Positions 2,247 through 20,526 of a DNA stretch of 64,000 nt are shown here, piece by piece (position 1 is the first letter of the stretch; each line of letters starts with the position of its first letter). The notes under the pieces are model-generated. The model saw nothing but the letters and a program-made list of their open reading frames with translations, was not told the DNA's origin and did no database searches. The stretch lies in IMG/VR virus record IMGVR_UViG_3300030380_003294. One strand, 5' to 3'. Source of the stretch: a virus. Position numbers and translations under genes: made by a program.

Positions 2247-2675
2247 TCAAGACCCTTCTTTCCACTTAGTCCATTCGATAGCGTTTTTGATTTGGAAGTT
2301 TCTGGTATTGATTTGTTTCAGAACATTCTCTAAGAAATATAATACTTGCTCAATATAATCAATCTTATAACGTAACTTACGGATCTCTTCATCAGCATCG
2401 ATGAACATCCAAATTTCTTCTTTAGTAGTAAGTTTTAAATCAAATGGCATCTCTTTGTAGATTTGAGATGGTGCTTTACCTTTATAGTAAATCCATTTGT
2501 CTTTCTTAAGTGCATTTAACTCACCCTCTTTCTCTTTCTTCATAAGAGAGTAAGTATTGTAAAATTCCAGATACCTTTGATGTAACTGAGGAATCTTAAT
2601 TGACTCCTCACAATACAAATCACTATCAATCACACAGTCCTGTTTCCAGAGTTCCTGTAGTTTATCTAAGTTCAT
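2247..2675 (-). CDS. uvsY: UvsY recombination mediator
   Basis: 142 aa with IPQLH..YL, KW.YY.GKA and R.FQIKNAIEW motifs; immediately upstream of uvsW. Confidence 0.92.
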   Translation of the reverse strand: MNLDKLQELWKQDCVIDSDLYCEESIKIPQLHQRYLEFYNTYSLMKKEKEGELNALKKDKWIYYKGKAPSQIYKEMPFDLKLTTKEEIWMFIDADEEIRKLRYKIDYIEQVLYFLENVLKQINTRNFQIKNAIEWTKWKEGS

Positions 2676-2856
2676 TTAAGTAATCTTTTTCATTTTGATA
2701 GATGTGTTCTTGTCCTTGCCAGATTTTATATCCTTGGACAAGTTCGGGTACTAACCATTCATGTACTGGTAAGCAGTACTTCCAGTTTACAGGTTGAATA
2801 CAATTCAACACGACCACTTCATAGAATGCTACCAAGTGAATCCAGAACGTTAGCAT
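2662..2856 (-). CDS. Hypothetical protein (64 aa, hydrophobic N-terminus)
   Basis: Start re-assigned to the ATG at 2856, which makes a TAATG overlap with the upstream stop; MLTFWIHLVAFYEVVVLNCIQPVNWKYC... Confidence 0.6.
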   Translation of the reverse strand: MLTFWIHLVAFYEVVVLNCIQPVNWKYCLPVHEWLVPELVQGYKIWQGQEHIYQNEKDYLNELR

Positions 2857-3101
2857 TAGACACCTTGCTCTTTGTTCTGTTCCAACCACTCTTTCATTGT
2901 TGTCTGATATCCAGACTCACGAGAGGGAGGTTCCTTGATCCCCTTGATCTTCTTGTAGTCTTGATGCATCGCTCCCAGTAACCAACTTTGAGAAAGACTT
3001 GTCGGTCCTTCTTTCAACAATCGGATTTGTGATTTGGAGAGACCACTTTTCATCTCCAAATACTCCTGTCTCCACGATGTGTGGGGTGATTTGTCTGTCA
3101 T
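2856..3101 (-). CDS. Conserved cyanophage hypothetical protein (81 aa)
   Basis: Strong GGAGG Shine-Dalgarno just before the ATG; WRQEYLEMK...GPTSLSQSW motif; translationally coupled to the next ORF. Confidence 0.7.
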   Translation of the reverse strand: MTDKSPHTSWRQEYLEMKSGLSKSQIRLLKEGPTSLSQSWLLGAMHQDYKKIKGIKEPPSRESGYQTTMKEWLEQNKEQGV

Positions 3102-3318
3102 TTTCCTCCCATAGGGAATGTATCTGGTCTACTTGACGATCAACGTCGTCCATGACCATCAGTATTTTACCATCAATCCATAATTTATGCAACCATTCAA
3201 TACATATTTCTGCAATTAATGATAGCGGTGGTTTCTGTTTTGCTGCCCACCTTTTAGATTTAGTATACCAATTATCTTCACCACCCCAGGTATGTTCAAA
3301 CTTGTGTTCAAACTTCAT
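2917..3318 (-). CDS. Hypothetical protein (133 aa; C-terminal 185 nt overlap the next gene)
   Basis: ATGA overlap with the g3 stop supports the start. Confidence 0.6.
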   Translation of the reverse strand: MKFEHKFEHTWGGEDNWYTKSKRWAAKQKPPLSLIAEICIEWLHKLWIDGKILMVMDDVDRQVDQIHSLWEENDRQITPHIVETGVFGDEKWSLQITNPIVERRTDKSFSKLVTGSDASRLQEDQGDQGTSLS

Positions 3319-6666: not shown

Positions 6667-7698
6667 TTATTTGGACCAACGAGCAATAGCGTCAACGTAT
6701 TTCGACATTGTGCCACTCGCTGTAGATTCTACAAGGGGTTCAGATGCTTCTTCGGTGGGTTCGCTTGCAGATTCTGCAATCTCAGCCTTCCTAGTGAAGT
6801 ATGATTCCTTGATAGTTTCGACTTTCTTACGAAAATCTTCTTCATTTTCAAACTCAACACCCTCTGCTAATGATGCTAACTTCTCCTTTTGGGTTTCAGC
6901 AAGACCAGTAGCACACTCGTACACGATTTCCATTTTAATAAAGTCACCAATCTGCTTGTTCAATGCAACATTGGTTTCGATTGTTTCGTTGAGTTTCGCT
7001 TCCATATCATCTAACTCTCCAACCATACCGTCAAGTAAGTTGAATTTTTCCTCAGGCACGCTAAAGTTGTGCTCAAGGAAAAGACTTTTTAGACCATTGA
7101 AGAATGACTCACTCATCTCAGTCTTAATACCGTGCTCGACCTGGAGTGCATTTTCCTTCATCCAGTTGTCAGCAGCATAAGATAAGTAATCATCAACCTT
7201 CTCGGCTAATTCTGTTTTGATTTTTTCGACTTCTTCAGTCAGAGACTCTTCAAATGCCTCTTGCAACGCTTGGACTTCTGCATTAACCTTTTCGGTTACG
7301 ACTGCCTCGAAGATTGTTGCTGCTCTGTTTCTGAACTCTTCTGAGAGTTCTTCACCAGCGACAAGAGCGTCAACATCTTGACTAAAGTCGTACTTGGTTT
7401 CAGAGATCGCTTCTTCGCCATCTTCGGTTTCCTCCATTTTAGCGGATGCGTCAGAAGGTTTCGTGCTAGGAACAGGTGCTTTCTTCACCGAACCCGAAGC
7501 AGATGCTCCTGCGTTCTTAGTTCCTTTCGCTCCTTCTTCTGAATCAGTGTTAACATCGATCACCTTAGGTGCACCACCTTTCGACGTGTCGATAGGGTCA
7601 CCAGGTTTTGCTTTCGCGTTAACTGCTGTTTTGGATTGGGTAGCACCTTCGGTCACTTCCTCCATGTTATCAAGATTTTTTTCGAGGGTCTCAGCCAT
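6667..7698 (-). CDS. g22: Prohead core scaffold protein gp22
   Basis: Acidic coiled-coil with LSEEF...AATIFEA and KVDDYLSY...WMKEN; lies between g21 and g23. Confidence 0.95.
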   Translation of the reverse strand: MAETLEKNLDNMEEVTEGATQSKTAVNAKAKPGDPIDTSKGGAPKVIDVNTDSEEGAKGTKNAGASASGSVKKAPVPSTKPSDASAKMEETEDGEEAISETKYDFSQDVDALVAGEELSEEFRNRAATIFEAVVTEKVNAEVQALQEAFEESLTEEVEKIKTELAEKVDDYLSYAADNWMKENALQVEHGIKTEMSESFFNGLKSLFLEHNFSVPEEKFNLLDGMVGELDDMEAKLNETIETNVALNKQIGDFIKMEIVYECATGLAETQKEKLASLAEGVEFENEEDFRKKVETIKESYFTRKAEIAESASEPTEEASEPLVESTASGTMSKYVDAIARWSK

Positions 7699-7746: not shown

Positions 7747-8391
7747 TCACAAACTCTTTAAAAACGACTCAAACGCGGAAACTTTGCGTTCTTGTAAGTT
7801 GATAAGGGTTGCGTGATCAATTTCTGTTTTAATTTGAGCAACAGTAGACTCTTTTAGAACTCCATTATCCCAAACCCACTCTTTACCTTCCATAATTCCA
7901 TCAACAAAAGCATCAGGTGCAGAAGGATCAGCAACAATATCTGCTGCTGTAGCGAGCATGAAGTCATCCATAACAACATTGCAGTTCTCTTCCTTACGGA
8001 TAGAACCCATCCCACGGGATGAAACACCGAGTTTTACACCCTCGTCTAGTAATGACTTGGCGACTTTACCCATAGGTGTGTCAAGTAGTTTCGCTTTACC
8101 AATGAAGTTGTTTCCATCTTCTTTGAGCGACATGATTTTATGTGATACCCTATCCAAGTTAATAGACGGACCATCAGGATGACCTAATTCTCCAAGGGCA
8201 CGCCCTTTTTGAATGTAGTTCTCATCATATTTAGCGACTTCTTTAGATAAAGTCTTGAGTGGATACATCCTATTGTTACGGTTTTTCAGTTCCGCTTGTA
8301 AGAAGATTCCCTCAATGAAGTAATTCTTCTTGCCTTCATTCTCTTCACAGAGAAAATCGACATTGTTAATCTCTTCAGCGATCAGTCTCAT
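7747..8391 (-). CDS. g21: Prohead protease gp21
   Basis: IEGIFLQ, NRNNRMYP, ALGELGHP, GVSSRGMGS and DIVADPSAPDAFV. Confidence 0.97.
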   Translation of the reverse strand: MRLIAEEINNVDFLCEENEGKKNYFIEGIFLQAELKNRNNRMYPLKTLSKEVAKYDENYIQKGRALGELGHPDGPSINLDRVSHKIMSLKEDGNNFIGKAKLLDTPMGKVAKSLLDEGVKLGVSSRGMGSIRKEENCNVVMDDFMLATAADIVADPSAPDAFVDGIMEGKEWVWDNGVLKESTVAQIKTEIDHATLINLQERKVSAFESFLKSL

Positions 8392-18064: not shown

Positions 18065-19333
18065 TCAACAATTCCAAGCACGCAAGGATTTGCTCAATCT
18101 ATCTTCACCTGTGTTATTTGATGGTTTCTGTCTCTTTCTCATACCTTTCATTCTTGCACAGAAGGATGCCCGTCTGGGATTTCCAACCTTCTTTGAAGGT
18201 GCTTTAAGGTCAGATCCTGGATTCTCTTTTTCATAAGACTTTCGTCCTTTTTCATTGAGTCCTCCTTCTTTATTCTGTCCTGACTTTTTTGTCCATGCTG
18301 CTCCTTCTTCGACATTAGTGGTCTCCTCTTTTTTTACGCAGCGGTTGTACGTTTTACCAAAAAGTTTTTGAGTGCCTTTTTTCTCATAACCTTTCCAACA
18401 CTTCTTCGCTTCTTCAAAGGAGGTTTCTTCTCTATTGTATGCAGGAACTTTAGCACCTTTCACACCACGACGTGCTTTGTGCTCTTCCCTACGCTTCTCA
18501 ATAGTTTTACCTCGTTTACCCTCAGGGTCAAACATGCCAGGATCATCATGCCCAGGTCCACTTCTTCTATAGTTTCTGATAGATGCTTTACCGTAATCGC
18601 TACGACCTTTATCTACCTTTGCTTCATTCTGCAGATTGTCTAAGTCATCTAATGCTTCACTAGACCAATACACTTCTGCTTCTTCATTCTTAGGGCGACA
18701 GTCAGGTACTAACTTACCACCCTTCATTTTCATACCAACTTTTTTATGTGTTTTCCAACATTCTGCTTGAAACTCAGAGAAAGTTTTGAGTCCTTCAAAC
18801 TCTTCTTTCTTACTCTTGTTTCCCCAATTCTTTGCACCAACTTTTCGGCATTTGACAAGTGCACCGCTTGCATAAGCACTTGGCCAAACTGAATAACGAG
18901 ACTTTACCTTATGGTAACATGCATCCTTTTCACCTTCCGTAATTTCTTTTTTTGAATTAAGATGTTTCTTAATACGGTCGGACTGACCTTTATGCATCTT
19001 GGATGCACCATCAAGTTCTTTGGATAATTTTTTTAGGTTAAGTTCTTCTGTGTTCACGTTGATTGCCTTACCTTTACGATCAGGATTCGGATCTTTAGCA
19101 TTCTTGCGACGGAATGCTGCTTCCTCCTCATCCTTATTTAGGTTGCGTTTCATTTTACTTGAACCGCACTTTGGTTTTGTGGTCTGTCCAGGTTGTTTGG
19201 CACAGGGTTTTCCTGCATATTTGCCACCGAGTTGAACCCAACCAGGCTTGCCATCACTAGACCTACTCTTGCCAAACCAGTCACGGAGAGAATTATCACC
19301 GCTTTTGTTTTCAACGATCTTTTCATTATCCAT
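18065..19333 (-). CDS. Highly basic modular protein; putative internal head polyprotein
   Basis: 422 aa of Lys/Arg-rich modules separated by acidic linkers ending in Glu; internal LKTFSEFQAE. Confidence 0.75.
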   Translation of the reverse strand: MDNEKIVENKSGDNSLRDWFGKSRSSDGKPGWVQLGGKYAGKPCAKQPGQTTKPKCGSSKMKRNLNKDEEEAAFRRKNAKDPNPDRKGKAINVNTEELNLKKLSKELDGASKMHKGQSDRIKKHLNSKKEITEGEKDACYHKVKSRYSVWPSAYASGALVKCRKVGAKNWGNKSKKEEFEGLKTFSEFQAECWKTHKKVGMKMKGGKLVPDCRPKNEEAEVYWSSEALDDLDNLQNEAKVDKGRSDYGKASIRNYRRSGPGHDDPGMFDPEGKRGKTIEKRREEHKARRGVKGAKVPAYNREETSFEEAKKCWKGYEKKGTQKLFGKTYNRCVKKEETTNVEEGAAWTKKSGQNKEGGLNEKGRKSYEKENPGSDLKAPSKKVGNPRRASFCARMKGMRKRQKPSNNTGEDRLSKSLRAWNC

Positions 19334-19985
19334 AATGGTATGCAGGTTTGTTAGTTTTACCTAGTTTGCCTTTTCTGACCTTTGTGCCAGAAGTTTCTCC
19401 AAAACCACCAGGATTTTTACCTGGTTTTGCTTTACCTAAAGTCATAGACTTATCAGGTTTTTTGTTCTCAGTATCATGAAGTCTAGCAGGTTTACCTGCT
19501 TTCTTAGTGATCACTGATTCTTGACCATGCTTTCTACCGAGACGACGCATGACCTTGCCGAAACGTCTCTTAGACATTCCCTTTCCAGGACTCGTTTGGT
19601 ATGAAACCTCACGTCCTGTACCTTCGCCTGATGAATATTTATATTCACCAACGCCTTTTTTGTATCCAATTCCTTTTTTCTTTAAATCTTTTTCGAGAGA
19701 CTTTCTACTTTCTCTGTTTTTCTTTTCGTCAGTTCCACGGTCAGCAGAAATATTGCCAGTCGTTTTAGACTGTGCTTTGGAAAGCATTCTTGTGGTAGGA
19801 TTGCCTTCAACTAGTTTGATAAAATCTTTGTAGTACATAACTTTTAGATTTTCTTTTTGTGCTAATTTATTTGCTGTTGCGTACATTACGCTTTTAGCAT
19901 CATCACCGTAAAGGCGTTTGAAACTTTTACCTTTACGTTTCATTGCCTTTACGATCTTTTCTGCTTTCTGGTTAACTGCGGGCAT
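19326..19985 (-). CDS. Basic protein with putative SAM-lyase (T3 SAMase-like) domain
   Basis: ISADR...N..SR..L...L, GVGEY-x10-E-V-S and LGRKHGQESVI match the recalled SAM-lyase pattern. The domain is preceded by MYYKDFIKLVE. The ORF itself is secure; the function is inferred. Confidence 0.6.
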   Translation of the reverse strand: MPAVNQKAEKIVKAMKRKGKSFKRLYGDDAKSVMYATANKLAQKENLKVMYYKDFIKLVEGNPTTRMLSKAQSKTTGNISADRGTDEKKNRESRKSLEKDLKKKGIGYKKGVGEYKYSSGEGTGREVSYQTSPGKGMSKRRFGKVMRRLGRKHGQESVITKKAGKPARLHDTENKKPDKSMTLGKAKPGKNPGGFGETSGTKVRKGKLGKTNKPAYHYG

Positions 19986-19986
19986 C

Positions 19987-20526
19987 TTAACCTCCGACTA
20001 CTTGAACCTCTTCAACAACGATTGCACCAGAACCTGCAGTAATTTTAACTGCACGCTTGACTACTGCTTGCTTACCAGAGTATGCATATGTGTAATCAGC
20101 AGAAGCACTAGATGAATCAACATCAGTGCTAATAGAGTTAGGAGTTACAGCAGTAACTTTCTTACCTACAGTTCCTGCAGATAGAAAGTTTGAATCGATT
20201 GCAGGAGATGTACCGTCATCTTCTACAGCGATGAAATCATCAACAGAGAATGGATGAGTGTTTGTCATCTCACCGATGTTAGTTCCAAGTTGATAATCAG
20301 CAGTACTATCATCTACTGCTTTAGTAATTCTTGCTTGACCAGGTTTTGCTCCTGACTTAAGTAGAAGTGCTTGATTTTGTACCAATGTAATAGCAGGTCC
20401 ACCGTTGAATGATACAGTAGATGCTGCTGCTGTAGCAAGCACTCTATAGTATCCAGTTTGCACTACTTGATATTCAGTTGCAGATCCTGCAACAGCGTTC
20501 GTACTTAATACTTTTAATACAGGCAT
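19987..20526 (-). CDS. Hypothetical, probable virion structural (beta-rich) protein
   Basis: 179 aa rich in Ala/Thr/Val/Ser; late box CCTAAATA just upstream (about 20556-20563). Confidence 0.7.
   Translation of the reverse strand: MPVLKVLSTNAVAGSATEYQVVQTGYYRVLATAAASTVSFNGGPAITLVQNQALLLKSGAKPGQARITKAVDDSTADYQLGTNIGEMTNTHPFSVDDFIAVEDDGTSPAIDSNFLSAGTVGKKVTAVTPNSISTDVDSSSASADYTYAYSGKQAVVKRAVKITAGSGAIVVEEVQVVGG

Follow-up and report, generated by a model that had tools for sequence, protein, structure and literature searches.

A modular basic protein encoded between the terminase genes of a T4-like cyanophage, plausibly a variant of the T4 internal-protein system in polyprotein form

[quoted passage not shown] Its sequence is MKTYQEFIAE (PMC8442874), in which positions 4 and 7 set targeting and positions 8 and 10 set processing (PMC9026906), and the same residues were read here directly from the T4 ipII and ipIII sequences. 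An Asp at position 10 stops processing in T4 while leaving targeting intact. From T4 Alt a 6-aa propeptide is removed at ITE-6 and a C-terminal segment at LTE-619. Many L/I-x-E sites are cleaved in T4 gp22, gp67 and gp68, and some of the resulting peptides stay in the head. The inner-body or ejection proteins of phiKZ, 201phi2-1 and SPN3US are head-internal; gp21-like proteases process them at several x-x-Glu sites, and some of them are DNA-associated.

The window, the 64,000-nt stretch of viral DNA analysed here, comes from a T4-like cyanomyovirus whose closest records are metaG-MbCM1 and P-RSM1, with about 85–89% nucleotide identity. It encodes a 422-aa modular basic protein (18065–19333, minus strand, stop codon included), which can plausibly be read as the T4 internal-protein system in a polyprotein variant, with processing that we infer by comparative analysis. 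Like the T4 internal proteins, the members of its family are small, basic and Lys-rich, occur in virions and have hypervariable mature parts (PMC9026906, PMC3012670). The 10-aa leader of relatives, M-K-T/S-F/Y-x-x-F/Y-hydrophobic-x-E, matches MKTYQEFIAE at positions 4, 7, 8 and 10, the putative scissile bond likewise joins Glu to a small residue, and the phage has gp21 and gp22. Unlike them, it has a mature part without sequence homology to theirs, no internal-protein family being found among its Pfam and PHROG matches and no resemblance to T4 ipII or ipIII beyond the leader. It also differs in its conserved Cys pairs, in the position of its gene between g16 and g17, in a degenerate 8-aa N-terminal leader, and in that the T4 proteins are single units cut once whereas here several putative cargo units are strung together with internal leaders and sites. 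The leader MDNEKIVE resembles the ITE-6 propeptide of Alt, although Alt is a single large enzyme. The peptides derived from the T4 core are acidic scaffold remnants, in contrast to the folded basic modules found here, and the phiKZ, 201phi2-1 and SPN3US proteins differ in coming from giant phages, in being large with long propeptides and S/A-x-E specificity, and in lacking a CTS-type 10-mer. The window protein belongs to DUF6321 (PF19846), T4-GC119 and phrog_727, labels that carry no function.

Locus and module organisation

The structural genes g23, g22, g21, g20, g19, g18 and g17 lie on the minus strand of the window. Past g17 and an accessory block follow, tightly spaced, the gene under study, a 219-aa ORF, a DUF7243 gene, g16, g15, g14 and g13, which places the gene between the terminase genes g16 and g17, inside the late structural block; this position is kept in dozens of divergent T4-like marine loci. 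As in the T4-type phages with internal proteins, both the gp21 prohead protease (Peptidase_S77, PF03420, E 4e-32; 7747–8391, minus strand), the presumed processing enzyme, and the gp22 scaffolding core protein (PF25623, E 2e-79; 6667–7698, minus strand), the presumed docking partner of the leaders, are encoded in the window. The late-promoter box TATAAATA occurs in three exact copies on the coding strand and is correctly placed ahead of g22 and g18. The third copy (19636–19643, minus strand) lies within the SAM-lyase-like 219-aa gene, 310 nt upstream of the start of the gene under study, and overlaps invariant E-Y-K-Y codons, so it was given no weight as a late promoter. The DUF7243 protein (19987–20526, minus strand) is the orthologue of S-SM1 SSM1_114 (T4-GC403), a cluster with 60 peptide counts in the S-SM1 proteome and among its most abundant non-T4 virion proteins (PMC3037559).

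The 422-aa protein (48 kDa at full length) contains 102 Lys and Arg against 60 Asp and Glu residues (pI 9.8, net charge +42), and it matches phrog_727 (E 2.8e-154). Its ten Cys residues form five pairs (44/56, 139/162, 192/212, 312/332 and 392/422), all of them kept in homologues, in agreement with the preliminary description of this DNA, which had counted five modules with one Cys pair each. The total of about seven mostly two-Cys modules given there was revised: when module borders were set by BLAST of protein parts against 120 homologues, six modules (M1, residues 14–95; M2, 134–172; M3, 192–214; M4, 238–300; M5, 312–334; M6, 344–422) and one helical basic linker were obtained. Modules are 80–100% conserved among homologues, while the linkers differ by insertions and deletions.

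The chain opens with an acidic 8-aa leader and putative propeptide, MDNEKIVE, which ends in an I-V-E site (19310–19333, minus strand, as are all features of the protein). Residues 9–133 (18935–19309) hold module 1, with the pattern NKSGD..LRDWF..GKPC..PKC..RRKN..INVxTE, and the basic helical linker ending in ITE-133. Residues 134–191 (18761–18934) comprise module 2 (DACYHKV..SAYASGALVKCRK, three short helices in the AlphaFold2 model), an acidic linker and a CTS-like string. Module 3 (residues 192–237, 18623–18760) is a CW..C beta-hairpin closed by C192/C212 and followed by an acidic tail ending LQNE. Residues 238–308 (18410–18622) carry the Cys-free module 4 (AKVDKGRSDYGKASIRN...), which is optional and occurs in some homologues only, and residues 309–343 (18305–18409) carry module 5, again a CW..C beta-hairpin (pLDDT ~92) and a paralogue of module 3. 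Module 6 (residues 344–422, 18068–18304) is DUF6321, the sole Pfam family matched by the full protein (residues 353–420, E 2e-20, 73.4 bits against a gathering cutoff of 28.5; 78.9 bits for the isolated module). Modules 1–5 scanned singly against Pfam at E values up to 10 gave nothing meaningful, and a search of the ESM Atlas returned unnamed viral clusters only, in which a minority of the members carried DUF6321 or DUF5872.

An AlphaFold2 model built from 60 sequences (mean pLDDT 60) predicted folded pieces of 20–40 residues. The beads at residues 138–165, 185–214 and 316–334 reached pLDDT 80–92, and linkers at 2–17, 93–101, 123–134, 174–182, 218–224, 240–268, 292–303 and 338–358 fell below 50. 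Together with the net charge profile, in which basic blocks alternate with acidic stretches, these linkers bear out the proposed alternation of basic modules with acidic linkers ending in Glu. Modules 3 and 5 were modelled as identical Cys-clamped beta-hairpins (pLDDT 82–92) and module 6 as helical. The claim that two of the modules are paralogous likewise held for this pair, which match each other in BLAST and align without gaps over C-x19-C with 8/21 identical residues, a score reached by 0.1% of shuffles. The idea that the Cys pairs bind zinc was weighed but not adopted: each module offers two Cys without His partners.

In homologues the modules are autonomous and, as had been predicted, their order is reshuffled at the linkers, an example being M1-M5-M2 in S-CREM2. 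This plasticity bears on whether the protein could be an external or portal-proximal accessory, either a capsid decoration or a DNA clamp associated with terminase or portal, as the location of its gene between those for the small and large terminase subunits and the abundance of the neighbouring DUF7243 protein (T4-GC403) in S-SM1 virions might suggest. The T4-GC119 gene, present in 15 of 16 cyanomyoviruses (S-PM2 lacks the cluster), ranges from 276 to 2985 nt (PMC3037559), with modules gained, lost and shuffled. Such a size range and module turnover are unlike a stoichiometric structural part; moreover, the chain is modelled mostly as disordered beads and the CTS-like leaders described below point to the scaffolding core, so that an external location appears very improbable.

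Leader strings and junction sites

The N-terminus of the window protein, MDNEKIVE, lacks aromatics at positions 4 and 7, the T4 targeting determinants, and does not qualify as a CTS, although it is closed by an L/I-x-E site, IVE-8; many relatives do have the N-terminal CTS feature that is missing here. An internal string, LKTFSEFQAE (residues 182–191, 18761–18790), had been described as a close mimic of the T4 CTS. The likeness extends to 6/10 residues, positions 4, 7 and 10 among them, but not to processing position 8, which is occupied by Gln, and the string lies in a predicted helix (AlphaFold2).

Among 240 family members, a CTS-like 9-mer with the T4 determinants was found in 75 copies, where 0.19 would be expected. 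Of these, 20 are N-terminal and 55 internal, and each stands directly ahead of a module start, as in MKTYKEFISE|AKKCW and MKTFKEFFAE|NKSGD. A DNA pattern of the N-terminal leader matched exactly three genes in T4, ipII, ipIII and 61.1, and its reversed control gave no match. In marine T4-like records it matched module genes and, besides these, a stand-alone gene for a SAM-lyase-like protein, a ligase-like ORF, a Gly-rich peptide and two adjacent S-SZBM1 genes; in the 64,000-nt window no ORF starts with a CTS leader.

Several of the genes matched by the leader pattern lie outside the family. T4 gene 61.1 (NC_000866, 18966–19130), which encodes a hypothetical protein of 54 aa and adjoins the primase gene 61, starts with the CTS-type sequence MKTFKEFIKE, and the Gly-rich rest of the protein is similar to that of a marine peptide, MKTFKQYVKE|DGMGGG..GEPGV..KKKK, itself encoded near a primase gene. 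A ligase-like protein (IMG/VR record, 5625 onward), over 400 aa long and bearing a KYDG motif of the nucleotidyl-transferase type, starts with the CTS-type leader MKSFISFLKE and is possibly capsid cargo. In S-SZBM1 the DUF6321 gene starts MKTFKQYITE and is directly followed by gp085 (1788–2105 of the locus examined), an acidic 105-aa protein of unrelated sequence starting MKSFKSFLSE; these are the only two leader-pattern matches in the 178-kb genome.

Eight linker ends had been put forward as gp21-type sites, with (I/L)-x-E as the gp21 rule. Strict (I/L)-x-E sites in the 422-aa protein are IVE-8, ITE-133 and LNE-361, the last inside DUF6321, and only the first two coincide with the eight listed sites; in the remaining six, P3 is V or F, or else P4 is hydrophobic. 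A strict site at every linker was accordingly rejected, and a broader rule allowing I, L, V, F or M at P3 was tested because the strict one fails. Ahead of module 1, hydrophobic-x-Glu occurs at most four residues away in 50/51 distinct 16-aa contexts (14% in shuffles), regardless of the upstream part, which may be a short leader or helical module, a Cys-rich ribbon, or a spacer rich in Gly and Asn. Stand-alone relatives of module 1 begin right at the P1' residue (MSKSGD, MANKSGD). The site is needed only when there is an upstream part, and so behaves as a processing site, unlike an element of the fold. At the other junctions P3 is hydrophobic in 40–75% of contexts and in the rest it is mostly P4 (VTNE|A, LQNE|A and FQAE|C are examples); the linkers are rich in Glu anyway, which weakens the argument away from module 1. 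The residue after the junction Glu is nearly always A, G, S, N or K. Across relatives the Glu sites at the junctions are kept while the linkers vary, and most candidate cut sites of the window protein fall in linkers of pLDDT below 50.

Within DUF6321, residues 359–361 (window region 18250–18258) belong to the sequence GGLNEKG in the cyanomyoviruses examined, that is, a strict L-x-E within the domain. Its counterpart in non-T4 phages is GGLNARG, GGLNAKG, GGLTAAG or GGLTKAG, and in one T4-like marine record GGLNQKG.

The uneven quality of the junctions raises the question of how far the chain is divided. The protein might be packaged essentially intact, with only the leader removed at IVE-8, as a multi-domain DNA-coating chain in which the linkers act as spacers. 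The module 1 site is by far the best conserved and the other junctions are looser, QAE-191 lies within a predicted helix, module order is mostly collinear in close homologues, and the T4 internal proteins are cut once only (PMC8442874), all of which agrees with such a chain. Against it, the 55 internal CTS-like leaders with their Glu recur ahead of internal modules, the strict site ITE|GEK ahead of module 2 is widely conserved, and stand-alone genes start at the P1' residue of internal junctions, namely GNPTT for the SAM-lyase-like protein and AKKCW for module 5. Packaging as an intact chain is hence regarded as unlikely, though it is the alternative to be taken most seriously, and a precursor divided at several joints is preferred.

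The SAM-lyase-like neighbour and its leader

The 219-aa SAM-lyase-like gene (19326–19985, minus strand) is located upstream of the gene for the 422-aa protein, which it overlaps by 8 nt. Its product has a small N-terminal helical module, which also heads T4-GC119 proteins of other phages, followed by the leader MYYKDFIKLVE|G (residues 50–61; E60 and G61 invariant), continuing GNPTT, and then by the SAM-lyase-like domain. This domain scored 26.4 bits with PF23780, under the cutoff of 28, and most relatives have a precomputed PF23780 match. In an AlphaFold2 model of low confidence (pLDDT 54), the top Foldseek match was the phage SAM lyase 6zm9 (E 4e-3), among generic ferredoxin-like folds, and a PDB sequence search with the neighbour gave no SAM lyase match. 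Its assignment as a SAM lyase is accordingly only probable.

In another T4-like phage the SAM-lyase-like domain is a separate gene starting MKSFQQFMAE|GNPTT, and in S-SZBM1 it forms the C-terminus of a longer annotated ORF, after ITYREFIAE|GN. The proposal that the adjacent gene joins the 422-aa protein in a head-cargo system thus gains comparative support, since the neighbour and its relatives share the same layout of leader and site; the enzymatic identity assumed in that proposal is kept only as probable.

Virion association, protease correlation and proposed role

S-SM1 SSM1_115, the T4-GC119 orthologue with common modules and the same g16–g17 position, is recorded as a 'structural protein' of purified S-SM1 virions with 13 peptide counts (Sullivan 2010, Supplementary Table 8, PMC3037559), and the S-CREM2 homologue ORF160 gave 7 unique peptides in CsCl-purified virions (PMC10665884), both values coming from tryptic proteomes in which fragment sizes were not reported. 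The expected occurrence of the family in virions was in this way confirmed by published proteomes for two phages; in Syn9, where the gene is present, the protein was undetected in virions (PMC3037559). A SAM hydrolase was likewise reported in the S-CREM2 virion (PMC10665884). The DUF6321 protein is unmentioned in the P-SCSP1u cryo-EM paper, and in the literature searched no paper was found linking the T4-GC119, DUF6321 or phrog_727 family to the CTS or to the leader and junction grammar.

Strongly basic proteins may be carried along when virions are purified. With its net charge of +42 the window protein could in principle be made during infection for nucleic-acid binding or host takeover inside the cell, adhering to virions or DNA by charge during purification, and would then not be capsid cargo. 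Its absence from the Syn9 virion data, the caution of the S-CREM2 authors that abundant proteins may co-purify (PMC10665884) and the location of DUF6321 among early-type small genes in the pelagiphage HTVC034P would fit this possibility. It is nonetheless improbable, given detection in two independent CsCl-purified proteomes, the consistent placement of the gene among head and packaging genes, and a leader and site grammar that follows the presence of S77. As regards placement, besides the g16–g17 position in T4-likes, the DUF6321 gene adjoins scaffold, capsid or terminase genes in 5/7 non-T4 phages examined, which ties the family to head assembly. As regards the protease, S77 is encoded in 5/5 complete T4-like genomes with leader- or site-bearing forms (S-SM1, Syn1, S-ShM2, S-SZBM1 and S-CREM2) and absent from 5/5 complete non-T4 genomes (P-SCSP1o, HTVC034P, MEP401, HTVC131P and CRP-901), a correlation over 10 genomes that is confounded with phylogeny (T4-like or not). 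In the same five non-T4 phages the modules are separate leaderless mini-genes; non-T4 DUF6321 proteins have 78–101 aa and start MAKTP.., MAQKK.. or MVAKK.., and in CRP-901 modules 2 and 1 are neighbouring ORFs of 54 and 91 aa. What these data show directly is the motif grammar, together with its conservation and the way it correlates with S77.

Other small basic proteins were noticed around the non-T4 relatives. In T7-like cyano- and pelagi-podoviruses a conserved protein of roughly 50 aa and very basic composition (..GLYANIH.KR.RI.AGSGEKMR..G.KG.PT..) follows the stand-alone DUF6321 gene (it precedes it in HTVC131P), and both adjoin scaffold or capsid genes. In Roseobacter phage CRP-901 a row of barely annotated or unannotated basic mini-genes (2483–3260 of the locus examined) comprises the M2-like 54-aa and M1-like 91-aa ORFs, another ORF of 47 aa and a protein of 85 aa labelled 'HVA1 family', which ends ..RYWSCKAW, and is flanked by two large proteins with a common N-terminal motif.

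The reading favoured here, with a probability of roughly 55%, is that the 422-aa protein is the precursor of head cargo that is loaded by CTS-type leaders and trimmed by gp21, and whose basic modules stay with the packaged DNA. The precursor would be made late, along with neck and terminase genes. Short amphipathic leaders of the T4 CTS type, represented in the window protein by a degenerate N-terminal leader and one internal copy, would bring it into the prohead's scaffolding core. In the disordered acidic linkers gp21 (S77) would then trim after the Glu of hydrophobic-x-Glu sites. As candidate cut sites these would be graded, IVE-8 being certainly conserved, ITE-133, FEE-308 and VEE-343 probably so, and QAE-191 and QNE-237 less surely. 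The Lys-rich, Cys-paired mini-domains so released (35–125 aa, net charge +5 to +15) would remain with the DNA in the head and accompany it into the cell. Loading into the head and trimming by the head protease are thought probable, and separation of the modules from one another is perhaps a further step. Both the location inside the head and the cuts themselves are deduced from comparison; the module roles are conjectural and would most likely be charge neutralisation or DNA binding, interference with the host or its defences in the first minutes of infection being an alternative.

More tentatively, and with less confidence than in the precursor itself, it may be proposed that marine T4-like phages load exchangeable mini-cargoes by means of a portable grammar, in which a CTS-type leader is combined with a hydrophobic-x-Glu joint, and that these cargoes reach the cell along with the DNA as a first-strike set, serving takeover or acting against host defences. 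The cargoes would be basic Cys-paired modules, the SAM-lyase-like enzyme, the ligase-like protein and Gly-rich peptides, carried as single genes or as reshuffled polyproteins cut by the prohead protease. If this is true, it would account for a very abundant 'dark matter' protein family of the ocean and would make the T4 CTS an ancient tag, kept from coliphages to cyanophages.

T4-GC119 / DUF6321 occurs in nearly all T4-like cyanophages, with at least 8000 candidates in a large-database search, and has so far been labelled just 'structural' or 'hypothetical', without function. The cargo model would extend the T4 capsid-targeting signal to ocean phages and would provide a sequence rule by which capsid-travelling cyanophage proteins, the probable SAM lyase included, may be predicted. 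If the model is true, phage cargo would evolve by the shuffling of mini-domains at protease joints.
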